A DNA stretch of 64,000 nt from Candidatus Latescibacterota bacterium (GCA_965222605.1 OZ244960.1:2624001-2688000); one strand, 5' to 3'; positions 3,091-56,570 are shown, counted from the stretch's first letter. Translations and numbers: made by a program. Notes: generated by a model not told the origin, from the letters alone.

Positions 3091-3116
3091 GGGACGGCAC
3101 GGGGACCGTCCCCTAC
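3091..3116 (-). repeat. GTAG-type REP family B (GGGACGGCACGGGGACCGTCCCCTAC on +); copies at 3222-3246, 3250-3275, 14830-14855, 14879-14905, 17850-17865 (partial), 25169-25194, 28827-28852 (inverted), 43954-43979, 44003-44028, 56480-56505
   Basis: Imperfect palindrome GGGACGG...CCGTCCC with GTAG foot, near-identical copies read directly. Confidence 0.9.
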
Positions 3117-3126
3117 AACGTGCTCG

Positions 3127-3155
3127 AATATAGTTTCACATATACAATACCGCAA
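3127..3155 (-). promoter_or_regulatory. Possible sigma70 promoter for the oxidoreductase
   Basis: TTGCGG-17 bp-TATATT on minus strand. Confidence 0.45.
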
Positions 3156-3159
3156 TAAC

Positions 3160-3199
3160 AAAAAAAAGGCCACTGGACAATATGCCCAATGACCTTTTT
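3160..3199 (-). terminator. Rho-independent terminator of the surface-protein operon
   Basis: Minus strand AGGTCATTGGG-loop-TCCAGTGGCCT hairpin (G-U pairs) followed by a T run. Confidence 0.7.
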
Positions 3200-3271
3200 G
3201 AATCGGCACCGTCCCAACAACGGGACGGCACGGGGACCGTCTCAACAACGGGACGGCACGGGGACCGTCCC

Positions 3272-5320
3272 CTACTTCAACAGCAGCATCTTCTGGATCG
3301 CGGTATTTGAACCCGCTTTGATCTCGGCGATATAAACGCCACTACCAACGCTGCGGCCCAGATAATCCTTAGCATCCCACTGGACACTATAACGACCTGC
3401 TGTATAATGCCGGCTCACGAGTTGACGAATCTCCTGCCCAATCGCATCGTAAATCACGATAGACACATCTGTCTCAGCAGGCAAATCATAGGAAATCGTC
3501 GTTCTCGGGTTAAACGGATTGGGATAAACCGTCGAAGCAAATTCTGTGGGCAGAATGAAACGCGCGCCCAACAGCACCTCAATCGGATTCGAACGATTAA
3601 TCGTCCCATCCAGATCAATTTGCTCGAGCAGGTAATAAACCTTCCCAACAGCGGGAAGGCTCGTATCCTCAAACATATAATCCATCAACTGATCGGTCGT
3701 ACCGGCACCGGCTATGAGCGCGCTGACCACCTCGTAGGTCTCACCATCCGTGCTGCGAAGCACGCGGAAACCCGCATTATTGGTCTGCGAAGCCGTCGCC
3801 CAATTCAGCACCACGCGGTCTTCAATCACCGATCCGACAAAAGACGACAACTCAATCGGCACCTGCTCGTCAAACTGAACAGTTGTCTCAACAGAAGCCA
3901 TGCCATCACTCGCCGTCACCGTGACAACAGCGGAACCCAGACCAGTCGCAGTCAAAACATAAACTTCAAGCATATTCATGTCCGGGTGACCATCGATCAT
4001 AGCCGCGCCTTCTACAGTATGCGAAAAGGTAATTTTAGAACCCTCGGCAAAGCCCAGAGCGGTAATCTTAACCGTCGCTTCACCACCGCGCGGAATCGTC
4101 GCAATAGTCGCAGACACCTCCAGCCGCGGACCGAAATTATACATCACCGGTGCTGGAATCATCAGCATCGTCGTCTCGCCAGACGCGAGAAGCCCTGTAA
4201 ACGACTCAACACCAACCGTAAACGGCACAGCCTCAGCACCTGTCATCAGCTTCACCGTGCCCAAAAAACCACCATTGGACAGCATCACCGCTTGTTCAGA
4301 ACCAACATCGACCATATTACCGGAAATACCCAGCAGAGTTATACCCTCAGCAGGTGCAAAACCCGTGATCATCGCCGCAGAAGCCGGATCAATCGTAAAT
4401 GAGATACTCGCACCGCCGATACCACCATCTATATCACCTGCAAACACCTCAATGGCAATCTCTTCATTGGCACCGGCACTGGCCGCGAGCATACCATCAT
4501 CCATCATATTCATCATGTCCATGCCGACAACGGCATCCAGCGCGGGAAGCCTCACCTCGACAAACTCAATCGTAATCGGATCGGTTGTGGTCATACCATC
4601 ACTCGCCGTCACGATCGCCTTTGCCGGGCCACTTGCCGTCAACGTCAGCGTGGCGCCATCCATCATGGACATAACATGCTCAATCATTTCGCCCTGCACG
4701 TCAAAGGTAATCGTCGCATCGGCGGCAAAATTCACAGCCGTAATCGTTGCCTTCCCGGTGCTACCCGCTGGCACAGAAACCACAGTCGCATCTGCTTCCA
4801 GCCTGGGAATGGCATTAAAAGACAAGGGTGCCATCATCGCCGTGGTAATATCATCAGTGTTAGTAGGATCGGCACCACTGGCCAGGCTCTTAATACTGAC
4901 GCCAACTGTAAATTCAGTACTTGCCATCACACCTTCTACGGGCGTCAGCGTAACAGTCGTGAAATAGTCGTTGGTCAAAGAAGCACCAGGTGGAACACCA
5001 CCAATAGTAGCAACATTTGCTGTTGTACCCAGAACAAAAAGTCCCGCAGCAGAAGTCGCACTTTTGACCGTCAGCTTATCCGTATCAAAAGTTATCTCAC
5101 CACCGACAATGGGACCTGCCAACCCACTGATAAATATTTCAACGACAACATCGGTACCCGCAACAGCAGTACCCGATGTATGGCCATCATTCATTTTATT
5201 GTCACTGGCATCAATGTCAACTGACAAAACAGCATTTGCATTGGGACCAGCAGAAGCTTGACCCACAAACGCCAGAAATGCAAGGGCAGTAAAAAATAAC
5301 AATCCTCTTTTCAAAAACAT
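3272..5320 (-). CDS. Secreted surface protein with cohesin-like/Ig-like repeats and C-terminal FlgD-Ig/T9SS-type sorting domain
   Basis: Signal peptide MFLKRG...GQASA; VPIELSSF...LNWATASQTNNAGF module; YPNPFNPRTTISYDLP...WDAKD...SGVY...KMLLLK tail; GAAGGAG RBS. Confidence 0.85.
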   Translation of the reverse strand: MFLKRGLLFFTALAFLAFVGQASAGPNANAVLSVDIDASDNKMNDGHTSGTAVAGTDVVVEIFISGLAGPIVGGEITFDTDKLTVKSATSAAGLFVLGTTANVATIGGVPPGASLTNDYFTTVTLTPVEGVMASTEFTVGVSIKSLASGADPTNTDDITTAMMAPLSFNAIPRLEADATVVSVPAGSTGKATITAVNFAADATITFDVQGEMIEHVMSMMDGATLTLTASGPAKAIVTASDGMTTTDPITIEFVEVRLPALDAVVGMDMMNMMDDGMLAASAGANEEIAIEVFAGDIDGGIGGASISFTIDPASAAMITGFAPAEGITLLGISGNMVDVGSEQAVMLSNGGFLGTVKLMTGAEAVPFTVGVESFTGLLASGETTMLMIPAPVMYNFGPRLEVSATIATIPRGGEATVKITALGFAEGSKITFSHTVEGAAMIDGHPDMNMLEVYVLTATGLGSAVVTVTASDGMASVETTVQFDEQVPIELSSFVGSVIEDRVVLNWATASQTNNAGFRVLRSTDGETYEVVSALIAGAGTTDQLMDYMFEDTSLPAVGKVYYLLEQIDLDGTINRSNPIEVLLGARFILPTEFASTVYPNPFNPRTTISYDLPAETDVSIVIYDAIGQEIRQLVSRHYTAGRYSVQWDAKDYLGRSVGSGVYIAEIKAGSNTAIQKMLLLK

Positions 5321-5372
5321 TTGCAAGACTCCTTCGCTGAAAACTACTCCTTGTAAGTTCTGAGGGAAAAAT

Positions 5373-5399
5373 TAGGGGCGAGGCATGCCTCGCCCCTAC
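5373..5399. repeat. GTAG-type REP family A (GGGCGAGGCATGCCTCGCCCCTAC); copies at 20888-20911, 21520-21544, 24913-24936, 24972-24987 (half), 25225-25248, 28940-28963, 40063-40086
   Basis: Perfect 26-bp palindrome TAGGGGCGAGGCATGCCTCGCCCCTA here; same core at the other sites. Confidence 0.92.
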
Positions 5400-5403
5400 C
5401 GAA

Positions 5404-9330: not shown

Positions 9331-9400
9331 TACAAACTCCTCTAATTGAAAAATGGAATCGGGAAGCCTCAACAGGGAAACTTCCCGACCCATCGGCGAA

Positions 9401-14083: not shown

Positions 14084-14161
14084 CCTATCGACCTCCTAAA
14101 AAAATGTTAGGATCGAGTAAGTATTTGTTTGCGAACGAATTAAACTTACTGCGAAACTGCT

Positions 14162-14186
14162 GAACTGGTCTCAGACCAGTTCCTAC
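14162..14186 (-). repeat. GTAG-type REP variant (GTAGGAACTGGTCTGAGACCAGTTC) in the long leader
   Basis: Perfect 9-bp stem GAACTGGTC/GACCAGTTC plus GTAG foot. Confidence 0.65.
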
Positions 14187-14532
14187 TTTCTCGCGCTGTC
14201 CCTCGTGTTGTTTAAGACCGGACCCCAGAACAGGGTGAGAGCCGCGACCTTTGCGACACAGCGAAGAAGAACTACCGTATTCCAAATTTATATCCCTCCC
14301 TTCAACAGATTTGTTTTCATTTTCTCTATTCCTCACAGAAACAACAGGTTACGAACAACTATAAATTAACCATTTTATTCTAGTACCTCCTTCCAAAAAC
14401 AGCCTAACACACACCAATGCAACATCCTTACAATAGCCTTAAGGAGTAATGCGTTAGGAAGAATCAACACTCCTTCTGTTTTATTTGATGTTCGATTCAT
14501 GAAAACTGCTCCACATTATATATGACGGGCTA

Positions 14533-14561: not shown

Positions 14562-14589
14562 GCGTTTTTTCATTTGTTTTTAAACCCTG

Positions 14590-14680
14590 TCTGAATCAGG
14601 ATTTACAGGATGATAGGATGGACAGGATAAAAACAAAGGCAAAACCTGCTGGATCGCGGCTTAAACTATGCCGCGAGGAC
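14590..14680 (+). repeat. Composite repeat: CAGGAT array + AAAGGCAAAACC + CGTC-type palindrome TGGATCGCGGC...GCCGCGA; related copies 15938-16061, 23107-23175, 50181-50275, 56419-56526
   Basis: TCTGAATCAGGATTTACAGGATGATAGGATGGACAGGAT nearly identical to 23107-23145. Confidence 0.85.
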
Positions 14681-14908
14681 AACCAAAAGAAGACAGCGAA
14701 TAATTCATAGATGAAGTGGATGAACGCGGCACAGGCGGGGCCTACACAGAATATAACACCTATGTCGTAGCACATCAAGCCATTCTTACATATATCAGCA
14801 ATGACAGGCAAAAATATTCTGGATCGCACGGGACGGCACGGGGACCGTCCCCTACAACATCACAACGCAATGACAAACGGGATGGCACGGGGAACCGTTC
14901 CCTGCGAT

Positions 14909-15181: not shown

Positions 15182-15208
15182 GACTATCTCATTATTATTA
15201 TAACGCGT

Positions 15209-16034: not shown

Positions 16035-16086
16035 GGATCGCGGCAGGGATGCCGCTCCTACGGGCCAACCAGCCCCCAGCCCCCTC

Positions 16087-20872: not shown

Positions 20873-20918
20873 CCACGCCGCAATGACGGGCGAGGCATGC
20901 CTCGCCCCTACGGTTGCT

Positions 20919-20966: not shown

Positions 20967-21548
20967 TCACTTCTTATTATACTGATTCATTGCCCGTTCA
21001 ATACCTTCTGTTGCCCAACAAAGAGCGCCCTCGACCACTTGCCCAACCGCATCTGTAATCACATCCCGATCTTTGGATGTAAATTCACCCAACACATAAT
21101 CAATCATCCCATCCAACTCGGCGGGTTGCCCAATACCGACGCGCAACCTCGGAAAATCCGCAGCCCCCAACGCGCGCTCAACAGACCGCAAACCATTGTG
21201 CCCGCCGTGACTGCCCGTGCGCCGAAAGCGCAACTGCCCCAAACTTAGATACACATCGTCAACCACCACGAGCACATCTGCCCGTGCAACCTCAAAACAC
21301 CGCGCAATCTCCGCCACACCCAAACCGCTCTTATTCATATAAGTCAGCGGCTTGACCAGCACCAGATCATCTGAAAACTTGCACCACGTACAAAACTCAA
21401 ACGCATGCCACTGTGCATCTTTGCCCAGCGCATCAACCACCCAAAATCCCACATTGTGGCGCGTATGTGCATAGCGCGCGCCCGGATTGCCCAGCCCCAC
21501 AACCGCCTTTACACCGTACGGGCGAGGCATGCCTCGCCCCCTACTCAT
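20967..21548 (-). CDS. pth: Peptidyl-tRNA hydrolase (start at ATG 21548 or ATG 21530, both translating REP sequence)
   Basis: VGLGNPG..Y..TRHNVGF, KPLTYMNKSG, GSHGGHNGLRS, RLRVGIG. Confidence 0.93.
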   Translation of the reverse strand: MSRGRGMPRPYGVKAVVGLGNPGARYAHTRHNVGFWVVDALGKDAQWHAFEFCTWCKFSDDLVLVKPLTYMNKSGLGVAEIARCFEVARADVLVVVDDVYLSLGQLRFRRTGSHGGHNGLRSVERALGAADFPRLRVGIGQPAELDGMIDYVLGEFTSKDRDVITDAVGQVVEGALCWATEGIERAMNQYNKK

Positions 21549-23224: not shown

Positions 23225-23247
23225 CGAGAAACAACGACCCACATCGC

Positions 23248-23273
23248 GGGCGACCACAGGGGGTCGCCCCTAC
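23248..23273 (-). repeat. GTAG-type REP variant GGGCGACCACAGGGGGTCGCCCCTAC
   Basis: GGGCGACC/GGTCGCCC stem with CTAC foot. Confidence 0.75.
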
Positions 23274-23298
23274 AACAAATTTTCAATAACGGTCCTAA

Positions 23299-26200
23299 AT
23301 GATCCTTCTCAAAAACACATTAATTTTCATCGTCCTCTTCGGAACATCATCCCTCTGCGCGCAGGGGACCCAGGATGAAAATTCGCATTTTGAACTCGCA
23401 AAGCGAATCTACAACGACGGCCTCTATGCCGATGCCGCGCGGGAATATAAGCAATTCATCATCAACTTCCCCACCAGCAAGCGACTGCCCGATGCCACGC
23501 TGCGCGTTGGGCAAGCCCATGCCAGAGCCGAACAATACGACCTCGCACTCGAAGCCTTTCAGCAATTCATCGACCGCTACGCCACCCACATCGAAGTCGC
23601 CAGTGCAATGCGCGCACGCGCCAATGCACTCAGCCAACTTGGGGAACACACCCGAGCCGGCGCGGCCTATCGCGATGTACACGCGGCCTATCCCGCCTCG
23701 ACAAACGCGCCCCAGGACCTCTTATCAGCCGGCGAGAACTACCACAAAGGCGGTGCCTTATCAGAAGCTGGCGCGGCCTTTCGCCAACTCGCCGCACAAT
23801 ATCCCAAATCGCCACTAATCAATGAAGCCACCTTCAACCTGGGCCGCGTCTTACTCGAAGAATCGCGCGCCGAAGAAGCCCTCGCGCAATTCCGCACCCT
23901 CGCCGAACACCCCGGTTCAGCAAAGCGCAAACCCGACGCCCTCCTCGAAATGGGCAACATCGCCCTATCGCGCGACAACCTCCCTGAAGCAGAACGCATC
24001 TTTGCAAACCTGCGCGCCAGATATCCCGCAACACCTGCCGCCCAGAACTCGCACCTCATCCTGGGCGCGTGGCACGCCGGCAAAAACGACTGGGCACGCG
24101 CTGAAAAAACCTATAACAACGCCCTTGCAACAATCCCGAACAACACCCGTCTCCAGCAAGCCATGTTGGGAAGTGCAAATGCAAAACGCAAACTCGGCAA
24201 AAGCGAAAGTGCGCTACAACGCTACGCCTCATTTCTAAGAGCCTATCCCAAAAGCCCCTTCCACGCCCACGCCCTGCTGGGCTATGGCCGCACATTTGCA
24301 GACCTGAAAAATTATCGCAATGCACTGGACGCATTCAAAAACCTGCAGGAAAAATATCCAGACACAGACATCAGCATCCAGGCTTATGGCGACATCGGAA
24401 ACTTATGGCGCGCGCTTGGAACGCACCAAAAAGCACTGTCAGCGTATCAAACATACCTCACGCGCATACAATCCCCCAGCGAAAAAGCCAATGCACGGCT
24501 GCACATCGCGCAACTCTGTGAAGACCTGCACTGGTATGACCTCGCAGCCGAAAATTATCGCACCCTGATCAACAGCCCAATCGCACACTACGCAGCCGAA
24601 GGTCAATACGGATTCGCCCGCGTATTTGAAAAAACCGGAGACCCCGCACTCGCACTGCGAGAATACCGCACCTACATCAAAAACCACGCCGACGCCTCGC
24701 ACGCCGAAACAGCAGAAAGGCGCATCCAACTCCTCACCGAATTTGGCACCGCAACCGACCGCGACCGCACATGGCTCGAACTCCTCGCCAACTTGCCCGG
24801 CATCGCCGACGATGCACACACGCAATTTATACTCGGCAAAACCCTCTACAATCAAAAACACTACAACCGCGCAATCACCCACCTCGAAGCCGCGCTCGCA
24901 TGGCATACGTACGGGCGAGGCATGCCTCGCCCCTACACGCCCACATCGGCTAACGATGACACATCCACCAACATGCCTCGCCCCTACACACCCGCAAGTA
25001 CGGGCGAAAAATCTTTCGCCCCAACATCCAGCGACACACTCGCACTTGCCGCCGAAGCCGCACGCGCAGCCGAAGCCGCACTCGCGGCATTATCCACATC
25101 TAATGACACACCATCTAATGACGACACACCTGCTCCGCCACCCAACGGGCGGGCACAGGGGGATATGCGGGACGGCACGGGGACCGTCCCCTACACATCT
25201 GAAGACACACCATCGGATGAGTACGGGCGAGGCATGCCTCGCCCCAACGACACGCTCGCCTCAGCACCCAACGACGCCCCCCCCTGGGCATCTGAAGCCT
25301 ATTATCTCCTCGGCAACAGCTACTTAAAACAGGCGCGCAGAGCCACCCTCGAAAACAAATCCCCAGACAAATGGCAAAACAAAGGCATCGCAACACTCAA
25401 AATACTCGTCAAAATATTCCCCGACAACGACCATGCGGAAAACGCCGCACTCGCCGTCATACACACAGAAACAGCCCACATACAACCCGACACCCTCCGC
25501 GCACAAACGCGTCTGAGCGCCTATCGCGCATATCAAAAAACACATCCCAACAGCCCCGATTTGCTCCTGCGAATCGCCGACGCCCACTTCTCCAACACCC
25601 ACATCGACAGCGCCCTCAGCCTGTATCTCCAGATCGAAAAAAAAGCCAGCGACCCCACACGCAAAGAAAAAACCGCCTATCGCATCGGCTTGTGTCAGGC
25701 CCGGCAACAACAACACATACGCGCCGAAGAAACCCTGAAAAACTTCCTCTTCAACTATCCGCAGAGCAACCTATTACCGCACGCGCAATTTCAACTGGGC
25801 CGCATACTCCTCGACCGGGAATTTTACGCCAGCGCCGCCGAAGCATTCTCCGAACTCCTCTCCGCATCCCCAACGCTCGCACTCCAGCGATCTGCCCGCT
25901 CGCTATTGGCCGAAAGCTACCATCGCCTGAGGAACTATCAACGCGCCATAGAAATAGACGAAAGCCTGATCACCCACAACACCACCCCCCAATTATTGCG
26001 CCGCCTCGCCAAATCCTATTCTCAAAACAACCAGCACAACAAAGCCATCACAACTTATGACATGTACCTCCGCAAATATCCACAAGCACCCGACGCCGAC
26101 AGCATCGCCTTCACACGCGCCGAACACCTGACATCGCGCAACCGCACATCAGAAGCCCTCACCGCCTTCCGCGAATTCTCCCAAAAATACCCCAACAGCC

Positions 26201-27264: not shown

Positions 27265-27268
27265 CAAC

Positions 27269-28780
27269 ATGTCCGACCAAAAAGAAGCCCTCATCATCGT
27301 AGATCAGCCCACCGCACTGGGCCGCGACCTGCGCGCCGAACTCGAAGAACTCGGCTGGCAAACCCTCGTGACCAACAGCGTGCGCCCCGCCAGAAAACTG
27401 CTCTCTGAAAACCAGTTTGACCTGCTCATCCTGGACGAAACCATATTGCCCGAAGTGCAACTCGCCGACATATTATCTGAGCGGTCTGAAACACTCCCCG
27501 TCTTCGTAATCACCACGCAAGACGGCTCACAACTCCAAACAGCACCCTCATTAGACCCCGATGCCCTGCTCTCCTATCCACTCATCCCCGCAGAATTGCA
27601 GGACGCCCTGCGTCAAAAACGCACCCGGCCCGACACCACCATCCTGGGACGCTCAAACGCCATGCAACAAATCCGGGAAAGCGTAGCCCAAATCGCGCCC
27701 ACCCCCGTCAGCGTACTCATCACAGGCGAAAGCGGCTCCGGAAAAAACCTCATCGCCGAAGCCCTCCACCGGCAAAGCGCGCGCAGCGACGAACCATTTC
27801 TCATCATCAACTGCGGCGCAATACCCGAAACCCTCCTCGAAAGCGAACTCTTCGGCCACGAAAAAGGCGCGTTTACCGACGCACGCACACAGCGATCTGG
27901 CATCTTTGAAGCCGCCAACCGCGGCACCGTCTTCCTCGATGAAATCGGCGAAATGTCGCTCTCTGCACAGGTGCGCTTATTGCGCGTTCTCGACGCCAAA
28001 GAAGTCACCCGCCTGGGCAACACCGCCCCAATAGCCGTTGACGTCCGCGTCATAGCCGCCACCAATCGCGACCTGCAACAAGCCGTTGCCTTTCGGCAAG
28101 ACCTCTACCAGCGCCTTCGCGTCATCGAAATCGAAATACCCCCACTGCGCGCCCATCCCCAGGACATCCCCCTCATCGCACAAAACATCATCCAAAAACA
28201 AAGCGACGACCTCCGCATGCCCCCCATTGAATTCGCGCCCGACGCGATGAACGCACTACAACAGTATTACTGGCCCGGCAATGTGCGGGAACTCATCAAC
28301 CTCATCGAACGCCTCATGGTCTTATCCAAAACCCGACAAATATCCGCCCTGGACCTCGCACAATACCTCGACACATCTCCCGTGACAGAACCATCTTATC
28401 TGCCCGTCCTCGCGGGTAAAACACCCGCAGAATCCGATCGCGATTTGCTCTATTGGGCAATACTCGAAGTCGCCAAAGACATCAAAGAACTCAAAGCCTA
28501 TCTGATGCAAAGCTGGCAAACATCGCCCCCGCCATCTCTTCCCGTCCCCATCTATGACACACCCATAGAAGACACGGAAATAGGATACACAGAAACAGAA
28601 GTAGAGGCAGGTTTCAAACCTGCCTCTACCGAAAAAGACATACGCCCACTGCGAGACCTCGAACGCGAAGCCATCGCCAATGCCCTGCGCATAACCGGCG
28701 GACACCGCGAACGCACCGCAAAACTCCTCGGCATGGCCGTACGCACCCTCTATCGGAAGATTGATCAATACGATTTGTAA
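27269..28780 (+). CDS. Sigma54-interaction (NtrC/Fis-type) AAA+ transcriptional regulator with degenerate receiver domain
   Basis: GESGSGK, ESELFGHEKGAFTDA, LDEIGEM, WPGNVREL, C-terminal HTH. Confidence 0.9.
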   Translation: MSDQKEALIIVDQPTALGRDLRAELEELGWQTLVTNSVRPARKLLSENQFDLLILDETILPEVQLADILSERSETLPVFVITTQDGSQLQTAPSLDPDALLSYPLIPAELQDALRQKRTRPDTTILGRSNAMQQIRESVAQIAPTPVSVLITGESGSGKNLIAEALHRQSARSDEPFLIINCGAIPETLLESELFGHEKGAFTDARTQRSGIFEAANRGTVFLDEIGEMSLSAQVRLLRVLDAKEVTRLGNTAPIAVDVRVIAATNRDLQQAVAFRQDLYQRLRVIEIEIPPLRAHPQDIPLIAQNIIQKQSDDLRMPPIEFAPDAMNALQQYYWPGNVRELINLIERLMVLSKTRQISALDLAQYLDTSPVTEPSYLPVLAGKTPAESDRDLLYWAILEVAKDIKELKAYLMQSWQTSPPPSLPVPIYDTPIEDTEIGYTETEVEAGFKPASTEKDIRPLRDLEREAIANALRITGGHRERTAKLLGMAVRTLYRKIDQYDL

Positions 28781-28784
28781 TGAC

Positions 28785-28852
28785 GGGCGGGCACGGGGAC
28801 CCGCCCCTACATCTGACTGTGTACGCGTAGGGGACGGCCCCTGTGCCGTCCC
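28785..28852. repeat. Inverted REP doublet (family C GGGCGGGCACGGGGACCCGCCCCTAC + inverted family B), REPIN/BIME-like
   Basis: ...CCCCTAC-16 bp-GTAGGGGACGGCCCCTGTGCCGTCCC; family C also at 33750-33776. Confidence 0.8.
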
Positions 28853-29027
28853 GAATGCCTCCGATTCTCGGAACCATCCAATAGGGTCGTGGGTCTAATC
28901 GTGGGAAAAATACGACGGGCGAAATGTTCTCACCCAATCGGGCGAGGCATGCCTCGCCCCTACATTCATTTCATCTGCGTTCATCTGCGTTCATCTGTGG
29001 ATCACACTTCAAAAAGGAGTTATCGCT

Positions 29028-33719: not shown

Positions 33720-33772
33720 GCCCCTGTTCCGTCCCCGATCACCACCTGCGGGCGGGCACGGGGGCACCGCCC

Positions 33773-35587
33773 CTACATTTTCTTCAACCCCTCACAAATC
33801 ACCTCCGCCAACCGCATCCCCACCCCATCGACCTCTGCCACCTCTTCGACCTCTGCCTCTCGGATCCGCTTTACCGAACCGAAATGCTTCAACAGTGCGA
33901 TGCGCCTCGACGGACCCACCCCGGGAATCTCATCCAACTCCGACGTCAGCGTCCGCTTCTGGCGCAACTTGCGGTGATACGCAATCGCAAACCGGTGCGA
34001 CTCATCGCGCAACATCTGCAACAACTTCAACGACGACGACGTCTTGGGAATATTCTGCGGCTCGGATAAACCCGGCAAAAACACCTCCTCCAACCGCTTC
34101 GCCAGCCCAATCACCGCCTGATCTTCAATCCCCAAACCCCGCAGCGCCTCAACCACGCTCGAAAGCTGTCCCTTGCCTCCATCGACCAACAGCAAATCGG
34201 GAAACGACTTACCCTCCTCCATCAACCGCTTAAACCGCCGCGTCACCACCTGCTGCATCATCGCAAAATCATTGGGACCCTCCAACCCCGTAATCTTAAA
34301 ATGCCGGTACTCGCGCTTTCGCGCCCTGCCATCCACAAAACACACCAGCGACGCCACCGGATCCGACCCCTGAATATTTGAAATATCCACCGCCTCAATC
34401 CACCGCGGCGGCTTCTCCAGATGCAAATCGCGCTGAAGAGCCTGCACCGCTGCCGGCGCTTGCGACCTGCGATTCTCGCGCTTCAACCGCCGCTCCGCCA
34501 ACAACAGCCGCGCATTATTCTCCGCCATCTTCATCAGCTGGAACTTATCCCCCCGCTGGGGCACGCGCATCTCAACCCCGCCCTCTGAACGCACTGTAAG
34601 CCAATCGAGCACCGTCTCCCGATCCTCAATATCACACGGCAAGCACACCTCTCGCGGCACAAATGTAGCCGTTGCGTAAAACAACTGCACAAATGCCGAA
34701 ACCACCTCCTCTTCAGACGCATCCAGCACCCCCCCGATAAAATAATTCTGCCGCCCGATCAACCGCCCATCGCGCACCTCCATCACCACCCCACAAGCCT
34801 CGTCATCTTCCCGCGCAACCGCAATCGCATCCCAATCCGTCAAATCATTAGACACCACCTTTTGCCGGCTCGCGGCCTGTTCCAATGCCCGAATGCGATC
34901 CCGATAAATCGCCGCCTCCTCGTACTTCAGCGCCTCTGCCGCCCGCTTCATCCGATCTTTAAGCGTCACCATAACCTGCGTATGCCGCCCCGTCAAAAAC
35001 AACACCGCTTCATCCACAATCTTTTGATACGCCCCTGCCACAATCAACCCCTCGCACGGCCCGTCGCACCGCTTGATCTCATAATCCAAACACAACCTCA
35101 CATTGGACTTTGGCAAATTGTAATCACAACTCCGAATCCGAAACAACCGGTGCATCGTCTCCAGCATTCGCCGCATCGCCTTCACATCCGTATAAGGACC
35201 CAAATAGCGCGACCCATCCTTCACCACATCGCGCGTCACCACAATGCGGGGAAACGCCTCTTTTGTAATGCGGATATACGGATACTTCTTATCGTCCTTC
35301 AAACTGATATTATAACGCGGCTTGTGCGTCTTAATCAAATTCGCTTCTAAAATTAACGCCTCCAACTCCGTATCCGTAACAATATATTCCAAATCGCGCA
35401 CATTGCGAATTAGTGCCCGAAACTGCCGCCGCCCATCATTGGCATTGGGGCGAAAATACTGCTGCACCCGGCTGCGCAACACCTTTGCCTTGCCGATATA
35501 AATAATCTGCCCCTCATCGCCCTTCATAATGTACACACCAGGCTCTCTGGGCATCAATGCCACAATGCTGTCAATATGCTCGCTCAT
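33773..35587 (-). CDS. uvrC: Excinuclease ABC subunit C
   Basis: PGVY..IYIGKAK.LRSRV GIY-YIG, UVR, DISN, DGGKGQL, RDESHRFA, HhH. Confidence 0.96.
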   Translation of the reverse strand: MSEHIDSIVALMPREPGVYIMKGDEGQIIYIGKAKVLRSRVQQYFRPNANDGRRQFRALIRNVRDLEYIVTDTELEALILEANLIKTHKPRYNISLKDDKKYPYIRITKEAFPRIVVTRDVVKDGSRYLGPYTDVKAMRRMLETMHRLFRIRSCDYNLPKSNVRLCLDYEIKRCDGPCEGLIVAGAYQKIVDEAVLFLTGRHTQVMVTLKDRMKRAAEALKYEEAAIYRDRIRALEQAASRQKVVSNDLTDWDAIAVAREDDEACGVVMEVRDGRLIGRQNYFIGGVLDASEEEVVSAFVQLFYATATFVPREVCLPCDIEDRETVLDWLTVRSEGGVEMRVPQRGDKFQLMKMAENNARLLLAERRLKRENRRSQAPAAVQALQRDLHLEKPPRWIEAVDISNIQGSDPVASLVCFVDGRARKREYRHFKITGLEGPNDFAMMQQVVTRRFKRLMEEGKSFPDLLLVDGGKGQLSSVVEALRGLGIEDQAVIGLAKRLEEVFLPGLSEPQNIPKTSSSLKLLQMLRDESHRFAIAYHRKLRQKRTLTSELDEIPGVGPSRRIALLKHFGSVKRIREAEVEEVAEVDGVGMRLAEVICEGLKKM

Positions 35588-40043: not shown

Positions 40044-40145
40044 GACTCTCCTCAGACGATTAGGGCGAGGCATGCCTCGCCCCTACATTCATTTTATCTG
40101 TGTTCATCTGCGTTCATCTGCGTTCATCTGCGGATACTTTTACCC

Positions 40146-43929: not shown

Positions 43930-44046
43930 AAGACAAAACCTTCTGGATCGCACGGGACGGCACGGGGACCGTCCCCTACAACACCATGCCGCGATGACGC
44001 ACGGGACGGCACGGGGACCGTCCCCTACACAAAAAGGCACATACCA

Positions 44047-50204: not shown

Positions 50205-50492
50205 AAGGATAAACAGGATGAGAATCAAAAGCAAAAACCACTGGATCGCGGCTAACACCCTGCCGCGATGACGGCTTCAAGTTGATTCGCTGACTACTGG
50301 CCACTGACTGCGATGACAAGCACAGAATGGACAGTCTTTTTTTAACCGATGCAATAGCGTGCAGCACTTGACGCAGCGACTGATTTACTATATAGATACA
50401 ATCAATTGGGATCGGCGCGGAGACGAGAAAGTTACCGCGCCAGATGTTGACCGCACGCGCTGGACTAAACCCAAAACAAAGGAGGTGCGATC

Positions 50493-51803: not shown

Positions 51804-52564
51804 TGAAGAAACTCCGAGAATTGAACAATCCTACTTCCGGCCTTGCTGAATACCTCAATTCCGTAGGCGATGAGACGAATTGGGACGAATTCCGCTCTCA
51901 CAATTCAGGAGCATCGTACAATGAACTCAGGGATGCTCTAACCCAAAACCAGCATGGACTTTGCGCCTATTGTGAGATTGCAATCAAAGAATGGCGTCGT
52001 CAGGTTGAGCATGTAATTCCGCAAAGTGATGATAAATTGGACAAATCAAAGGACCTCGATATAGCTAACATGGTGGCCTGTTGTATGGGGGGAACCAGAC
52101 CGATGTATGGCCTGGAGGACAATCATTATCTTGAACCAGTGAAACGCAACATGAGTTGTGGTCAGGCAAAGGGGAATCAAAACGACGAAAACTTTATTGG
52201 TCCTCGGATACTACCTGCCTTGCCTTCGCTTATGAAGGTAACTGACAACGGACTGATTGAAGCAGACGAAAATGCTTGCCAAATGGCTGATTTTCTCCCA
52301 GACCATGTGACTCGCACCATTGAGATTCTAAACCTGAACGCGGAACGGCTCCGGTCAGCGCGGGAAAAGCGATGGAAGGGTCTTGATGAAGAATGGCAAC
52401 AAATTGACGTTATTGATGATCCAGATATGATGAATGATTGGATACGCTCCCTGCTAATACCAGATGAGAACGGACAGTTGACACGTTTCTTCACGACGAC
52501 CCGGTCTTACTTTGGCCCACTCAGCGAACCCATCCTCGCGCAACAACCTCAAACGTGGATATAA
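51803..52564 (+). CDS. PtuB-like HNH endonuclease (TIGR02646-like)
   Basis: Q.GLCAYCE...VEHVIPQS...NMVACC...SCGQAK; TI..LNLN; coupled to the ATPase by TAATG overlap. Confidence 0.82.
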   Translation: MKKLRELNNPTSGLAEYLNSVGDETNWDEFRSHNSGASYNELRDALTQNQHGLCAYCEIAIKEWRRQVEHVIPQSDDKLDKSKDLDIANMVACCMGGTRPMYGLEDNHYLEPVKRNMSCGQAKGNQNDENFIGPRILPALPSLMKVTDNGLIEADENACQMADFLPDHVTRTIEILNLNAERLRSAREKRWKGLDEEWQQIDVIDDPDMMNDWIRSLLIPDENGQLTRFFTTTRSYFGPLSEPILAQQPQTWI

Positions 52565-52567
52565 ACT

Positions 52568-54928
52568 ATGCCTGCCCGCCGCACGCCCGCGAAATCAAAA
52601 CCCCCTTCTGATCTCACCCATTTCCTATCCCGCCCGTGGATACCCATTGTATTTTTTGCCCTGCTCACCACTGGCTATTTCTATCACATCCTCATCACGG
52701 GCGATGTGATCTACGGCAGCGACACCGGCGCAGAATTTCACAAAGGCAACGAACCCTTTGCAGAAGCCCTGAACAAATTGCCCCAAAAAAACTGGAGCCG
52801 ATTCATGGGCGGCACCCCGGAATCTTCCGCGCTGCGTCCCCAATACTATCCCCTTGTCGTCATCGACCTCTTCACCAGCGAACACCGCTATTTTGGCTGG
52901 CGTTATATCTTCGCCATGTTCACAGCGGGCTACTTCATGTATCTCTGCGCACGCAGCTTTGGCCTCCATCCACTCGCCGCCCTCATCGCAGGTGCGGCCT
53001 ACGCCTCTGCACCCGCATTTCTCTCCTTCTCACACGCCGGGCACTATGCAAAAATGACCGTCATCGGCCTCTTTCCCCTCATGTACTGGGCACTCAACCG
53101 CGGCATGGACACGCGGCGCATCATCTATTTTTTAATCCTCGGCGGCACCGTCGGCATCGCCATCTACAGCCCGCACCTCCAAATGGCCTACTTTGCCCTC
53201 TGGGCACTGGGCCTGCTCTTTCTCTACAGACTCTTATGGGACCTGTTCCGTACCCGAAACACAAAAACTGCCCTCTATCAAACCCTCCTATCAGCAGGCG
53301 CAATCTGCCTGGGCCTCGCCATAGGTGCAGAAGGCGTCATCCCACAATACTGGAACACAACAACATCGTCAAAACGCGCGGTTACTGAGCAAAACGACGG
53401 TTATGAATTTGCCTCATCCTGGTCGCTCCATCCCGAAGAAATATTCGCCCTCGTCATCCCCGAATTTGTCAGCTTTGACACAAACACAACAACCCACAAA
53501 TACTGGGGACGCAACGCCTTCAAAATCAACTCCGAATACGTCGGCATCGTCCCCCTCTTCTTCGCCATCCTCGCCCTCTCGCGCATCCGCAAAAAAATCC
53601 ACATCGCATTCCTCCTGGGCCTCTTCATACTCGCCATCGCCTACGCCCTCGGTCCCCACACACCCCTGCACAAACTCTTTTTTTACATCGTGCCAGGCGT
53701 CAACGTATTGCGCGCACCCGGCATGATCGCCTTCCTCTTTGCCTTTGCATTATGCGCCCTCGGTGCGTACGGCCTCCACCGCCTGATAACCGACGACATC
53801 ACCCCCGAGGCGTCAAAAAAAATCGGCATCGCAGGCGGGATATGCACCGCAATCCTCCTCCTATTTGCCTTCGCCCCTTCTATACTCCTATCCCTGTGGC
53901 AAAACATCGTCTGGACGGACATACCCGCCCCCCGCCTCCAAATCGCCCGAAATAATCTCCCCCTCGCGGGACAAGGCGCATTGCTCGCCGCACTCTTCGT
54001 CGGCACACTCACCGCCATCTCATATCTCCGCGCACAAAACAAAGTCCAAATCTACACCTTTGCCCTCGTCCTCCTCACCGTCATCCTCATCGACACCTGG
54101 CGCATCGACAAACTATTTCTCAATTATATCAACCCCAACCGCGTACCACCCAGCGAGCGCGTCAATGCCGACGCCGTAGCCTTCCTGAAACGAGACAACA
54201 CCCTCTTTCGCGTATTCGCGCTACCCGACCACAACCAGATGCCCTTACCCGGCATAGACCTCGTAACCGGATTCAACGACTTTGCCATCAGGCGTTACGA
54301 CACCATCCTCAAATCCGGAGCCGTCAACAATCCCGCAATCCTCAACCTCCTCAACACCAAATACATCGTCACGCCATCAGAACTGAACATCCCCTATCTC
54401 CAAAAAATCGCCGGACGCCAGGGACTGCATATCTACCGCAACCCCGGTGCACTACCCTGGTTTTATCTTGCACCCCAATACGAAATCATCCCCGATGAAA
54501 ATCAGATCCTCCAAAAACTGACCGACCCCAACACCTACCCCACACAAACAGCACTACTCGAAGAAGATCCCGGCATCACCTCCGACACCGGCGAAACGGG
54601 CAGTGTTGAACGCCTCGAATACGACGAACACCAGGGCTATCTCAAACTCCAAACAACAGCTCCAGGATCCCGCATCCTCGTCATCTCACAAAACCACCAC
54701 CCCAACTGGCGCGCCACCGTCAACGGCGAACCCAAACCCCTCATTCGCGCCAACTACCTCTGGACCGCAATCGCACTTGAACCCGGCGAACACATCGTCG
54801 AACTCACCTACCGCGACCCCATCGTAGCCACCACGCGATGGATCACACTCGGCGGTGTCATCATCCTCATCGCTGCAATCGCGCTGTGCATATACAAATC
54901 CCATGAAAAAACCGACAACACCAACTGA
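52568..54928 (+). CDS. YfhO-family membrane protein (GT-C-like)
   Basis: Multi-TM N-terminus, R.P motif, LLNTKY, C-terminal P.W.A.VNG...RAN...L.PG.H.V. Confidence 0.82.
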   Translation: MPARRTPAKSKPPSDLTHFLSRPWIPIVFFALLTTGYFYHILITGDVIYGSDTGAEFHKGNEPFAEALNKLPQKNWSRFMGGTPESSALRPQYYPLVVIDLFTSEHRYFGWRYIFAMFTAGYFMYLCARSFGLHPLAALIAGAAYASAPAFLSFSHAGHYAKMTVIGLFPLMYWALNRGMDTRRIIYFLILGGTVGIAIYSPHLQMAYFALWALGLLFLYRLLWDLFRTRNTKTALYQTLLSAGAICLGLAIGAEGVIPQYWNTTTSSKRAVTEQNDGYEFASSWSLHPEEIFALVIPEFVSFDTNTTTHKYWGRNAFKINSEYVGIVPLFFAILALSRIRKKIHIAFLLGLFILAIAYALGPHTPLHKLFFYIVPGVNVLRAPGMIAFLFAFALCALGAYGLHRLITDDITPEASKKIGIAGGICTAILLLFAFAPSILLSLWQNIVWTDIPAPRLQIARNNLPLAGQGALLAALFVGTLTAISYLRAQNKVQIYTFALVLLTVILIDTWRIDKLFLNYINPNRVPPSERVNADAVAFLKRDNTLFRVFALPDHNQMPLPGIDLVTGFNDFAIRRYDTILKSGAVNNPAILNLLNTKYIVTPSELNIPYLQKIAGRQGLHIYRNPGALPWFYLAPQYEIIPDENQILQKLTDPNTYPTQTALLEEDPGITSDTGETGSVERLEYDEHQGYLKLQTTAPGSRILVISQNHHPNWRATVNGEPKPLIRANYLWTAIALEPGEHIVELTYRDPIVATTRWITLGGVIILIAAIALCIYKSHEKTDNTN

Positions 54929-56420
54929 AGCACCCGCCATTCAGCGCATTGCCCGCGGCGCGATACAGACCTTCGGCAGCACCTACCCCGCGCGACTCAT
55001 CAACTTCGCCGTTCTCCTGCTGATCTATCAAATCCTCGTACCCGAAGACTTTGGCGCCATCACAACAGCCTATTCGATCCTCGCCCTTGTAATCGCCATC
55101 CGCGACCTCGGATTGCACTACGCACTATTGCACGAACACGACAACGTCCATGAACTCGCACCCACCCACTTTGTACTCAGCGTCAGCCTGGGCAGCATCA
55201 GCGCACTCCTCGCCCTGTGCATCGCCCTCTATTCCGAACACCTGTTTGAACTCGTCAACACCTGCATCGGCATCACAGACACCCGAAGCTACCCCAAAGT
55301 CGCCATTGCCCTGGGCATATTGGGCGCTTTCGACCTCCTCCGAACAGCCGCCCTCACCGCCGAAACCCAGCTCCAGCGCGACCTCGAATTTGGACGCCTG
55401 GCATTTGCACATGCCGCGGGAACCATCCTCGCAGCCATCGTCGGCCTCATCCTCGCCTACCTCGGATACGGCAAATGGGCACTCATCATCGGATTCTTCC
55501 CATACAGCGTCACCTATATCCTCGTCTATTGCACCGTCGTCTGGCTCCGCCATCCCCCTCCGATAGACCAACTACACACCTTCAACCCGCAAGCCGCGCG
55601 GCGCATGATCCGCTACGGCATCTGGTTCTGGATCGGCGGCATACCCAAAATTTTCATTCAACACTACGACAAACTCATCATCAGCTTATTCTTCACCTTG
55701 AGCCTGCGCGGGATATACGACGCCGCACACAGCTTTGCACAGATACCCAGCGGCGCCATCACCATGGTCATTGTGCGCATCACCGGTGCTGTGTACGCGC
55801 GCTACCAGAACAACCGCGACCAACTCTCCGCAGCATACCGCAGAACCTCGCGCCTCATCCTTCGCACCACAGTCCCCATCTCTCTCGTACTCGCGCTCGA
55901 AGCCGACCGATGGATCCACATCTTCAAACCCGACTGGGCACCCGCAGCCCCCCTGCTCCAATGGCTCATTATCTACTCTCTTTGCCGCCCCCTGCTCGAC
56001 GATGTACACGCCCTATTTTACAGCATAGGCAGCCCCAAAAGCATTGCAAAATTCTCTGCGGCGCAAGCCCTCATCCTCCTCATCCTTGCCCCCTATCTCG
56101 CCCATCACCTGGACGCGATAGGCATTGCCATAAGCATGAACGCCATCGCCATCGTCGGCCTCATCCTCGCACTCATCCTCGTTCGCGCATATGTCGATAT
56201 CCCCATCGCCAAAACATTCGCCCCCCCACTCATCGCCGCAGCCATTGGCACCGGCATGCACTTTGCCTGTGCCGAATGGCTCAACACATTGCCAATTCTG
56301 ATGGGCGTCTTCGCCGGCAGCGCGATCTTTACCCTGAGTTACAGCATCGGCTTGCTCCTCGTTGAACGCAAAACACTAATCGACGAAATCAAAACCGTCA
56401 TCCGCACCATCAAATCATGA
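54903..56420 (+). CDS. Wzx/MOP-family oligosaccharide flippase
   Basis: L.PEDFG..DLGL..AL, LQRDLEF, G.G.WAL, ~12-14 TM. Confidence 0.85.
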   Translation: MKKPTTPTEAPAIQRIARGAIQTFGSTYPARLINFAVLLLIYQILVPEDFGAITTAYSILALVIAIRDLGLHYALLHEHDNVHELAPTHFVLSVSLGSISALLALCIALYSEHLFELVNTCIGITDTRSYPKVAIALGILGAFDLLRTAALTAETQLQRDLEFGRLAFAHAAGTILAAIVGLILAYLGYGKWALIIGFFPYSVTYILVYCTVVWLRHPPPIDQLHTFNPQAARRMIRYGIWFWIGGIPKIFIQHYDKLIISLFFTLSLRGIYDAAHSFAQIPSGAITMVIVRITGAVYARYQNNRDQLSAAYRRTSRLILRTTVPISLVLALEADRWIHIFKPDWAPAAPLLQWLIIYSLCRPLLDDVHALFYSIGSPKSIAKFSAAQALILLILAPYLAHHLDAIGIAISMNAIAIVGLILALILVRAYVDIPIAKTFAPPLIAAAIGTGMHFACAEWLNTLPILMGVFAGSAIFTLSYSIGLLLVERKTLIDEIKTVIRTIKS

Positions 56421-56570
56421 TCAGGATGTGCAGGATGAAAGGATGGACAGGATGAAAATCAAAAACTTCTGGATCGCACGGGACGGCACGGGGACCGTCC
56501 CCTACAACACCATGCCGCGATGACGGCTCTACAGCACATGATTTGCTGACCGCTGATAGCTTGTTTTGCA

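Follow-up and report, generated by a model that had tools for sequence, protein, structure and literature searches.

GTAG-type REP hairpins with replichore-dependent polarity in a Candidatus Latescibacterota genome

Introduction

Why do nearly all GTAG-footed hairpins of one bacterial locus point the same way, whatever the direction of the genes around them? The locus is a stretch of 64,000 nucleotides from a Candidatus Latescibacterota bacterium, referred to here as the window, for which a sequence-only reading had proposed that REPs of several families spread as single units with a polarity set by the replichore, as substrates of RAYT enzymes. According to PMC3333891, the GTAG foot is the recognition element of the E. 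coli enzyme TnpA_REP, which acts on one ssDNA strand, and the lagging-strand template was proposed there as a possible substrate. Elements of the IS200/IS605 type (IS608, ISDra2) insert into the lagging-strand template, and their genome-wide orientation bias flips at ori and ter, as described in PMC3971601 and PMC6006769.

Results

Hairpin units in the window and in the genome

All 20 coordinates given in the sequence-only reading correspond to a G+C-rich stem-loop adjoining CCTAC, 19 with CTAC on the plus strand and one (28827) reversed, with GTAG on the plus strand. The change of gene direction from minus to plus at about 23 kb was likewise found. The GTAG foot said to be shared by at least seven stem variants was recovered for the A-D types but not for GGGCGAAAAATCTTTCGCCC (25002-25021), which has the foot CAAC rather than CTAC in the window and CTAC at the orthologous position in one relative. 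Variant GCGGCAGGGATGCCGC, at 16040, was rejected as an A-D REP and assigned to a different hairpin family, H2; the unit at 24972 is a truncated B copy. Two units were absent from the earlier list, a two-footed palindrome GTAG...CTAC (28601-28629) and a B copy with the foot CAAC (25225-25248). As ssDNA the window units fold into hairpins of -7.6 to -13.2 kcal/mol with stems of 7-11 bp. They are given below by window position; G000 is the source genome (6.34 Mb, mapped whole) and all other G-numbers are relatives.

3091..3116, minus: REP family A, single unit (minus-strand reading: GTAG + GGGACGGTCCCCGTGCCGTCCC)
3250..3275, minus: REP family A, partial A copy ahead, head-to-tail
5375..5399, minus: REP family B (GTAG + GGGCGAGGCATGCCTCGCCC); other stem variants at the orthologous site in relatives
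14162..14186, minus: hairpin GAACTGGTCTCAGACCAGTTC + CTAC, unique copy with GTAG foot
14649..14680 (G000 2638649 R), minus: H2 hairpin repeat (GTCMTCGCGGC...GCCGCGATCCAG), second polar family
14830..14855, minus: REP family A
16040..16061, minus: H2-like hairpin GCGGCAGGGATGCCGC, then TCCTAC; outside the A-D REP families
20888..20911, minus: REP family B
21520..21544, minus: REP family B, foot shifted by 1 nt
23248..23273, minus: REP family D singlet; ~26 nt missing from contigs of two ~99%-identical strains
24913..24936, minus: REP family B within a TPR gene, in frame (GRGMPRPY); 27-nt insertion, absent from 5 relatives
24972..24987, minus: truncated B copy within the TPR gene
25002..25021, minus: variant E stem GGGCGAAAAATCTTTCGCCC, foot CAAC, within the TPR gene (GEKSFAP)
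25169..25194, minus: REP family A within the TPR gene (RDGTGTVPY)
25225..25248, minus: B stem with degenerate foot CAAC, within the TPR gene
28601..28629, no strand assigned: two-footed palindrome GTAG-AGGCAGGTTTGAAACCTGCCT-CTAC, like the one beside RAYT-2
28785..28810, minus: REP family C, left half of a tail-to-tail doublet
28827..28852, plus: REP A' variant (loop CCCTGTG), the sole reversed copy listed; right half of the doublet
28940..28963, minus: REP family B, then TTCATCTGCG-type short repeats
33750..33776, minus: imperfect C-like REP (GGGCGGGCACGGGGGCACCGCCC + CTAC)
40063..40086, minus: REP family B, then TTCATCTGCG-type short repeats as at 28940
43954..43979, minus: REP family A, first in a head-to-tail pair
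44003..44028, minus: REP family A, second in the head-to-tail pair
50241..50272 (G000 2674241 R), minus: H2 hairpin repeat
56480..56505, minus: REP family A

The bare pentamer CCTAC is not enriched in the window (64 observed versus 64.3 expected), and its strand split of 54:10 tracks the window GC skew of -0.06 to -0.30. The case for polarity therefore stands on whole units of hairpin and foot, which are G/C-balanced exact repeats.

The window proved to be the densest patch of a genome-wide REP population, with 28 of the 96 catalogued copies falling within one 100-kb bin. REPs cluster toward the origin half of the chromosome. The copies are dispersed in G000 and lie mostly between crude ORF calls; exceptions are found in frame inside the TPR gene and inside the gene RAYT-1 (see below). 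No tetramer is more enriched than GTAG at the 5' flank of the 3717 perfect G000 hairpins (95 cases, 7.0x background). As short stem-loop palindromes with a 5' GTAG foot and a dispersed, mostly extragenic repetition, the units match REPs of the GTAG type.

Families differ in their loops, which read CCCCGTG in A and C, GCATGC in B and CCYTGTG in A'/D. Exact copies in G000 number 16+/6- for A, 6+/2- for C, 3+/5- for D and 20 for the self-complementary B. Families A, B and C occur mainly as single units or in head-to-tail runs, and 47 of their 59 copies lack an inverted partner within 110 nt and so do not form REPIN doublets. Inverted, REPIN-like doublets account for 28 of 37 copies in A'/D, a related subfamily. 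Sequence uniformity is highest in the singlet families. A conserved TT precedes GTAG and GT follows the stem in A and C; for B, no specific target tetranucleotide was identified in the flanks of solo copies, the most frequent 3' 4-mers of 15 solo B copies being GTCA (3), GTAC (3), CTAA (2) and GATT (2), mostly unrelated to CTAC. REPs, H2 and other hairpin modules also occur together as modular composites.

Orientation relative to replication

Genome-wide mapping, the check suggested along with the original proposal, showed that orientation is non-random outside the window as well and changes over where the replichores meet. For 44 of the 47 solo A/B/C copies (A/C 29/32, B 15/15), the strand reading 5'-GTAG is the one with the leading-strand sequence, which serves as template of the lagging strand. 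The left replichore carries R30/F2 and the right R1/F14 (Fisher p=5e-9), and the flip point coincides with dnaA (3,035,134) and the cumulative GC-skew minimum (3.06 Mb).

In agreement with the strand bias independent of gene direction that had been read from the window, REPs between co-directional genes lie on the sense strand in 12 and on the antisense strand in 6 cases (p=0.24), and the genes of G000 show no replichore strand bias (left 1198+/1209-, right 1281+/1372-). Transcription direction does not explain the polarity. Neither is base composition its cause: G and C are balanced in the units, and on the leading strand, itself rich in G, the A/C loop is rich in C. Since B is a perfect palindrome, its orientation is set by the GTAG foot alone. 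Controls lacked polarity: 47% of 3078 unique G000 hairpins lie on the leading strand, splits of 5:7, 4:6 and 6:4 were counted in other dispersed hairpin families, and inverted A'/D doublets gave 13/28. Note that H2, a hairpin family without GTAG (n=52), is polar too (left R27/F5, right F16/R4), and the polarity is thus not specific to GTAG.

The same flip at dnaA is seen in five single-contig relatives, with 92/103 B and 33/41 A/C copies concordant, together 125/144, counts in which copies and genomes are not independent observations because copies are strongly clustered and the relatives share synteny and symmetric inversions. Concordance for B is 34/37 in G017 (33 of the 37 being exact matches), 25/29 in G014, 17/19 in G007, 11/11 in G004 and 5/7 in G015, where A/C copies are concordant in 0/4 cases. 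A flip near the terminus, as defined by skew, was seen in one relative: in G014 the last plus B copy lies at 3,300,535 and the first minus copy at 3,334,930, within ~25 kb of the sign change in GC skew (~3.35 Mb). As with the active strand of IS200/IS605 elements, the GTAG strand lies mostly on the lagging-strand template, with a bias that flips at ori and, in G014, near ter. Relatives retain the REP hot spot in syntenic regions, and the syntenic block, found on one side of dnaA in some genomes, lies inverted on the other side in others. The local REP of a RAYT-bearing sister family tends to have two feet and only weak polarity, about 28:15 when counted by hand.

Gain, loss and replacement of units

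Single REPs have recently been gained or lost, both between species and between ~99%-identical strains. In the TPR gene, filled and empty coding sites that otherwise align differ by insertions of 27 nt (B) and 33 nt (E), and contigs of ~99%-identical strains lack ~26 nt at the D singlet 23248. The 90-nt doublet block 28775-28864 is reduced to 10 nt and the 110-nt B block 28903-29012 to 29 nt, each in three other strains. The same orthologous intergenic sites carry different stem variants in relatives with orientation unchanged. Spread as single units rather than inverted pairs, as originally proposed, is supported by the filled and empty sites, where one unit at a time is inserted (27, 33 and about 26 nt); the A'/D subfamily does form inverted doublets (28/37).

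RAYT-like genes

The window holds no RAYT gene, as had been stated. A search of G000 for RAYT genes flanked by each family succeeded in part: it yielded two RAYT-like genes, one with B-type REPs, but none flanked by A, C or D stems. RAYT-1 (179 aa, G000 3,942,114-3,942,653, plus strand) is co-directional with the fork and has an HUH motif H81-V-H83, with Y155 and N159 aligning with Y115 and N119 of TnpA_REP (4er8). The HUH residues, Y155 and N159 are invariant across a 10-sequence alignment, so that the RAYT catalytic motif is present, although at E=0.032 against 4er8 the protein is distant from the E. coli enzyme. Its best NCBIfam match is REP_Tyr_transpos (NF047646 / COG1943), for which RAYT-1 scores 58.5 and RAYT-2 71.1 bits, both below the 80-bit equivalog cut-off; scores against IS200 are far lower (about 19 bits). 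Some RAYT-1 homologues carry the name RayT in a source.

B-type REPs lie upstream of, inside and downstream of RAYT-1 (G000 3942060, 3942378, 3942683), all on the sense strand of the gene. The flanking REPs are direct in both G000 and G014, unlike the inverted arrangement of a classical REPtron, which does occur in the sister-family genome G024. Both RAYT-1 and the homologues in relatives have the REP type of the respective genome on their flanks and inside the gene, and the conserved internal REP of the family is a coding block for VGATHASP or VGARHAVP. Beside RAYT-2 lies a two-footed palindrome of the type at window 28601-28629.

The presence of RAYT genes in the genus does not track REP abundance. 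Of 18 genomes from the genus, just 6 yielded a RAYT-1 homologue (E<=1e-5). G017 and G004, single contigs of 98-99% completeness, gave no PF01797 or NF047646 match at E<=0.01 and are still rich in REPs (37 counted B copies, 34 concordant, and 11, all concordant, respectively). G007 and G015 contain only an IS200-like TnpA, and the 10-sequence RAYT profile, run without a positive control, gave no match in G017, G004, G007, G015 or G009. A-type matches (<=2 mismatches, A' included) number 72 in G007 and 50 in G009, neither with a RAYT-1 homologue.

Discussion

The 5' GTAG followed by a G+C-rich imperfect palindrome and, for family B, a Y1 HUH gene flanked by its own REPs are shared with E. coli REP/BIME (TnpA_REP, 4ER8). 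There, however, REPs sit mostly in BIMEs in both orientations, and therefore no replichore polarity is expected and none is reported in the literature searched; here they occur singly or in head-to-tail order, and the REPs beside the RAYT gene are direct rather than inverted. Several REP families per genome, and inverted doublets with a ~21-nt spacer like those of A'/D, are also features of Pseudomonas REPIN-RAYT systems (Bertels & Rainey 2011, PMC3116915). The model set out there takes the doublet as the unit that replicates and regards singlets as remnants of decay, whereas here singlets are the most uniform, gained singly and polar, and doublets are non-polar. The survey by Di Nocera et al. 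2013 (PMC3733652) describes GTAG-tagged families with single elements predominant and, as here, REPs inside genes; it gives orientation only relative to flanking ORFs, yielded no match when searched for leading strand, lagging or strand bias, and has head-to-tail dimers, common here, as absent or under-represented. In IS200/IS605 elements, too, hairpins (subterminal ones) define the active strand, and the polarity of RAYT-1 and of the REPs matches, in the same sign, that reported in PMC3971601. The REP units differ from these elements in being 26-33 nt long, with one hairpin, no gene and no autonomy. In-frame insertion into a coding gene, as in the TPR gene, recalls the palindromic elements of Rickettsia. 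These are short palindromic repeats inserted in frame in protein-coding genes; to our knowledge, they belong to a different sequence family without a GTAG foot or a known RAYT link.

Replication-coupled, strand-specific ssDNA insertion of the IS200/IS605 type probably spreads these REPs. A RAYT-like Y1 HUH enzyme would recognise, in ssDNA, the folded hairpin preceded by GTAG and cut only that one strand, and the unit would be pasted into ssDNA of the lagging-strand template at the fork, often beside an existing REP. Because of this target, orientation would be fixed at birth and reverse at ori and ter. The replichore-dependent polarity of the earlier proposal is supported; we infer that the enzyme at work is a RAYT and that the polarity arises from biased insertion, not from selection afterwards. 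Avoidance of cleavage, as a form of selection, would favour the opposite orientation, which counts for insertion bias.

Selection by the host would require that GTAG hairpins and H2 act in a replication-direction-dependent process, for example as strand-specific signals (protein or ssDNA) carried by the lagging-strand template, as orienting signals like KOPS or Chi, or as signals for the fork or for priming, with wrong-way copies purged. Polar REPs that are numerous and identical in relatives without a detectable RAYT (33/37 exact for B in G017), the equal polarity of the GTAG-less H2, the hot spot conserved in syntenic regions and the persistence of orthologous sites while stems change are all compatible with such a role. 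The host nevertheless tolerates inverted A'/D doublets with GTAGGGG on both strands (28/37 paired), copies come and go between ~99%-identical strains with no obvious constraint, and ~50-100 copies per 6 Mb are few for an architectural signal. KOPS form a gradient rising to ter, whereas the REPs cluster in the origin half. We know of no binding protein or phenotype for the motif, and consider a host-selected signal unlikely. Propagation by some other strand-asymmetric fork process, with the RAYT link in G000 incidental or historical, could involve an unrecognised nuclease or transposase, ssDNA fragments that anneal to the template of the lagging strand, or template switching at hairpins. It would account for RAYT-1 homologues not correlating with REP counts in the 18 genus genomes (72 and 50 A-type matches in G007 and G009, no homologue), for stems swapped at fixed sites and for the composites with H2 and other modules. 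We regard it as distinctly improbable, as RAYT-1 and its homologues bear the classical REP-RAYT signature of own-type REPs around and within the gene, GTAG is a known RAYT recognition element, and no alternative enzyme was identified.

Polarity could, finally, be linked to no mechanism at all: a few ancestral insertions might have been amplified locally and carried by origin-symmetric inversions, or skewed mutation might have decayed one foot of two-footed palindromes. The crowding of 28/96 copies in one 100-kb bin, the block inverted on either side of dnaA, the existence of two-footed copies and near-feet (GTAC, GTAA, GCAG) on the other side of some B copies would fit. We hold this to be extremely improbable, given that both replichores carry copies at many separate sites, intergenic as well as genic, and given copy sets that vary among genomes and stems that vary at orthologous sites, solo B 3' flanks mostly unrelated to CTAC and A/C loops whose composition runs counter to the skew; foot decay, moreover, cannot set the orientation of A and C, because these are not palindromic.

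Replication-coupled insertion by a RAYT-like enzyme is therefore the reading we prefer. A broader alternative, which we consider doubtful, is that single REP hairpins and the non-GTAG H2 are replication-polar repeats that remain abundant, uniform in sequence and polar where no Y1 transposase is detected, spreading or maintained without need of a resident RAYT, via an unrecognised fork-linked process or as host-kept signals on the lagging-strand template. If such RAYT-free upkeep were true, the REP inside the RAYT gene itself (VGATHASP or VGARHAVP) would hint at an ancient co-dependence of gene and repeat.

Identity of the REP units

All twenty REP coordinates listed in the sequence-only reading proved to be as described, nineteen of them being stem-loops followed by CTAC on the plus strand and one (28827) being reversed. 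Two of the seven stem variants proposed there had to be corrected: the AT-rich stem at window 25002-25021 has the foot CAAC, not CTAC, and the element at window 16040 belongs to a separate hairpin family, H2. Bare CCTAC occurs in the window at chance frequency (64 vs. 64.3 expected) and its strand split of 54:10 is as GC skew predicts, so that the evidence rests on whole units. These units are exact repeats of 20-22 nt, and exact copies in the genome number 16 on the plus and 6 on the minus strand for family A, 6 and 2 for C, 3 and 5 for D, and 20 for the self-complementary family B. As single-stranded DNA, they fold into hairpins with -7.6 to -13.2 kcal/mol. Of the tetramers flanking the 3717 perfect hairpins of the genome on the 5' side, GTAG has the highest enrichment (95 cases, 7.0-fold). 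Rfam returned no match at gathering score within the window.

GTAG-footed REP families, read 5' to 3' from the foot
Family A: GTAG-GGGACGGTCCCCGTGCCGTCCC
Family C: GGGCGGGTCCCCGTGCCCGCCC
Family B: GGGCGAGGCATGCCTCGCCC
Family A': like A, with the loop CCCTGTG
Family D: GGGCGACCCCCTGTGGTCGCCC

Behind each of two B REPs come the same short tandem repeats, of the ATTCAT + TTCATCTGCG type (window 28964-29012 and 40087-40110), and other copies in the genome are preceded by G/T-rich or G/A-rich short tandem repeats (GTGAAGG and CAAAGA types). Two-footed palindromes, GTAG-NNNCRGGTTTSAAACCYGNNN-CTAC, are present at genome positions 5,723,132-5,723,160 and 4,415,443 and at window 28601-28629.

Genome setting

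The genome is a single contig of 6,338,376 bp with 51% G+C. Its cumulative GC skew has a minimum at 3.06 Mb and a maximum near 0.05 Mb. The minimum and the position of the sole gene for a DnaA-domain protein (3,035,134-3,035,619) together place the origin at about 3.04-3.06 Mb. The window sits 0.35-0.41 Mb to the left of it, and its plus strand is lagging-strand sequence with a GC skew of -0.06 to -0.30 in 4-kb bins. The genes of the window serve ordinary housekeeping and envelope functions (H+-pyrophosphatase, peptidyl-tRNA hydrolase, UvrC, his genes, glycosyltransferases), and three large proteins carry type IX secretion sorting domains. As far as about 23 kb the genes are on the minus strand; beyond that point most are on the plus strand.

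The strongest GC skew of the genome is that of the window region (2.6-2.7 Mb; -0.21 over 100 kb and as low as -0.30 over 4 kb). AT skew is positive there, and skew is unaltered where the genes change strand. A REP hot spot with 28 of 96 copies coincides with this region, and the syntenic region of relatives is also rich in REPs. Over 100-kb bins of the genome, skew strength and REP density gave a Spearman coefficient of 0.23 (p=0.06).

Replichore-dependent orientation of REPs

The genome was scanned at all of its 23,165 GTAG/CTAC sites for an adjacent stem of at least 7 bp with at most one mismatch, G-U pairs being allowed. This yielded 96 copies of families A, B, C, A' and D, which show two behaviours. 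Copies of A' and D are mostly paired in a REPIN-like manner, inverted and tail to tail with about 21 nt between them, and are unpolarised (GTAG strand on leading-strand sequence, termed concordant, in 13/28 paired and 5/9 solo copies). Those of A/C and B are mostly solo or arranged in head-to-tail runs and are strongly polar, the GTAG strand being on leading-strand sequence in 29 of the 32 solo copies of A/C and in all 15 solo copies of B. The proposal that REPs spread here as single units rather than as inverted pairs is supported by A/C and B; in A'/D, an inverted partner accompanies 28 of the 37 copies. The predicted switch of orientation at the origin appeared in the genome-wide map: solo A/C and B copies are on the reverse and forward strands in 30 and 2 cases to the left and in 1 and 14 cases to the right (Fisher p=5e-9). 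At the three discordant solo copies (2,922,047; 2,968,420; 5,852,040) local skew is not clearly inverted. Lagging-strand synthesis uses the parental strand with leading-strand sequence as its template, and so the strand bearing the GTAG hairpin lies on the lagging-strand template.

Several other causes of this polarity were considered and rejected. Gene direction does not account for it: REPs between co-directional genes have their strand in sense in 12 and in antisense in 6 cases (p=0.24), the replichores have no gene bias and, as had been noticed from the sequence, REP orientation in the window stays the same where the genes change strand at about 23 kb. Despite the clear GC skew, crude ORF calls gave no co-orientation of genes with replication (left 1198 plus and 1209 minus, right 1281 plus and 1372 minus). 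A role in transcription or as terminators was dismissed because REP orientation is unlinked to gene direction and a T-run after the stems is absent on either strand. Base composition fails as a cause, since the units contain G and C in balance and, on the G-rich strand, the loop of A/C is rich in C. Family B is a perfect palindrome in which the foot is the sole asymmetry. The loss of one foot from two-footed palindromes by decay contributes little at most, because most 3' flanks do not resemble CTAC. Nor is polarity a general property of hairpins: 47% of 3078 unique hairpins are on the leading strand, and other dispersed families split 5:7, 4:6 and 6:4. The two absolutely polar families in the hairpin scan are CRISPR arrays with a 61-nt period, for which polarity is trivial. 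CRISPR-like arrays of this period lie at 1,974,027-1,978,010 (66 repeats) and 4,673,431-4,676,010 (43 repeats), and the repeat sequence differs between the two.

The H2 family (GTCATYGCGGC...GCCGCRATCCAG) has 52 copies in the genome, lacks a GTAG foot and often directly adjoins an A or B unit on its 3' side. Its window copies are at 14649-14680 and 50241-50272. H2 is polar in the same sense as the A and B REPs (left 27 reverse and 5 forward, right 16 forward and 4 reverse; 43/52). A filled and an empty H2 site can be compared: relative G004 carries a unit about 45 nt from the REP orthologous to window 5327-5403, and this unit is missing from the other five genomes.

Polarity in related genomes

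Copies of the A type are present in 12 of 18 genomes of the same genus and, in the sister family, in 1 of 12.

Concordant REP copies in five relatives, each a single contig with dnaA located and the terminus assumed opposite dnaA; other ends of palindromes with a non-GTAG foot and one two-footed copy are left out
G017: B 34/37, A/C 7/7
G014: B 25/29, A/C 5/7
G007: B 17/19, A/C 18/19
G004: B 11/11, A/C 3/4
G015: B 5/7, A/C 0/4

The block syntenic with the window lies to the left of dnaA in the genome under study, G007 and G017 and is inverted and to the right of dnaA in G014, G004 and G015, so that strand assignment relative to the fork is conserved. The totals for the five relatives, 92/103 for B and 33/41 for A/C, therefore combine copies and genomes that are non-independent observations. 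In G014, 20 sampled 12-kb stretches place the sign change of GC skew at 3.347-3.360 Mb; the last plus-strand B copy is at 3,300,535 and the first minus-strand copy at 3,334,930. The closeness of the two changes indicates that orientation also flips near the terminus in this genome, and one of its four "discordant" B copies turns concordant with the skew-defined terminus. In the sister family, the local REP (stem GGGCGACCGGCCGGTCGCCC) often has two feet; copies with one foot show only weak polarity (about 28:15, counted by hand).

Gain, loss and exchange of units

At orthologous intergenic sites, the stem variant differs by genome while the orientation is always the same. The site at window 5375 holds B in the genome under study and G015 and an AT-rich stem in G017, G014 and G007; at 3091 and 3250, A, B and other stems alternate among genomes. 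A TPR gene for 1321 amino acids (window 23299-27264) carries in-frame REPs in a linker, translated into peptides including RDGTGTVPY. In this linker (24900-25271), three REP families form short peptide blocks whose presence varies between species. The gene has a 27-nt B insertion that is missing in five relatives, and that of G007 has a 33-nt insertion missing in G015.

Close strains are represented by contigs from three runs of other studies, with about 99% identity to the window; being contigs and not reads, they do not reveal frequencies or intermediates. They differ from the window mainly at REPs. At a D singlet (23241-23283) pieces summing to 26 nt are missing; 10 nt stand in place of a 90-nt block with a C+A' doublet, and 29 nt in place of a 110-nt block that holds a B singlet (28940). 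Among the contigs of the probable source sample, a minor one likewise lacks the doublet block. In the TPR stretch 24900-25271, three strains of about 99% identity lack 354 nt and remain in frame. Clean REP excision was rejected for this 372-nt skip: its 18 intervening letters match window 25087-25104 and a direct repeat is found at its borders, so that it is a complex deletion or duplication. REP-to-REP joints (e.g., 24937 to 28784 and 25195 to 28780) were attributed to paths of the assembly graph through repeats and not to rearrangements.

RAYT enzymes

As the sequence-only reading had stated, the window lacks a Y1 transposase gene; the genome has three. An IS200-type TnpA is encoded at 0.354 Mb. 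The two RAYT-like genes are:
3,942,114-3,942,653, plus strand, RAYT-1, 179 aa
about 5.723 Mb, minus strand, RAYT-2, 175 aa

The best NCBIfam match of both is REP_Tyr_transpos (58.5 and 71.1 bits, respectively), with scores below the 80-bit equivalog cut-off and far above their own IS200 scores. RAYT-1 has a HUH motif, and its Y155 and N159 align with Y115 and N119 of E. coli TnpA_REP. At E<=1e-10 its homologues number at least 7996, and a source names some of them RayT. RAYT-1 has B-type REPs upstream and downstream on its sense strand. These are direct, not inverted, and the gene is co-directional with the fork, the same arrangement and polarity as in an IS200/IS605 element. RAYT-2 adjoins a two-footed palindrome of the type at window 28601-28629, as do RAYT homologues in relatives G011 and G022.

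Homologues of RAYT-1 were found in only 6 of the 18 genus genomes. PF01797 and NF047646 searches gave no match in G017 and G004, and the Y1-type genes of G007 and G015 are exclusively of the IS200 type. A RAYT profile search of five REP-rich relatives, run without a positive control, gave no match.

The RAYT-1 coding sequence itself holds a full GTAG-plus-palindrome REP (3,942,378-3,942,401) just after the HUH strand, encoding VGATHASP. VGATHASPL, VGAAHASPL or VGARHAVPL occupies the same place in all eight aligned homologues from several phyla (P0010, P0025, P0027, P0049, P0060, P0064, P0084 and P0117). The T..S to R..V change is as expected of a compensatory change in a DNA palindrome. Sister-family RAYTs have their own REP type at that place in another frame (RGDRPVA). 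The string GATHASP had no match in the literature searched.

Interpretation

A process in which single REPs would be inserted strand-specifically into single-stranded DNA of the lagging-strand template fits the polarity in its sign and its flips at origin and terminus, in its independence of genes and composition and in its dependence on the GTAG foot alone in family B, and it also fits the gain of single units. If selection acted to avoid cleavage, the orientation opposite to that seen would be favoured. Alternatively, a host function may keep REPs polar, which we consider unlikely, or they may be spread by a process independent of RAYTs, which appears less probable still. Both alternatives draw on the relatives that are rich in REPs and lack a RAYT, on the polarity of H2 without GTAG and on the conserved hot spot.

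REPs, RAYTs, REPINs and the replication polarity of IS200/IS605 elements are already known. RAYTs cut and join REP single-stranded DNA in vitro; to our knowledge, REP transposition by RAYTs has not been demonstrated in vivo. The mechanism of REP multiplication is still unsettled, and the prevailing model regards inverted doublets (REPINs) as the only replicative unit. Insertion into single-stranded DNA of the lagging-strand template is established for IS608 and ISDra2 and is a proposal for REPs (PMC3333891, PMC6006769, PMC3971601). No report of replichore polarity of REPs was found in the accessible text of open-access papers and preprints (including PMC3733652, PMC6006769, PMC3116915, PMC3333891 and PMC12306157).

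The genus thus provides a natural case in which single REPs dominate and bear the genomic signature of the lagging-strand-template targeting of IS608 and ISDra2. The persistence of polar REPs without a RAYT in some relatives raises a second question. REP polarity flips at the origin in several genomes, and near the terminus in G014; in this system, the hypothesis of a coupling to replication becomes directly testable.
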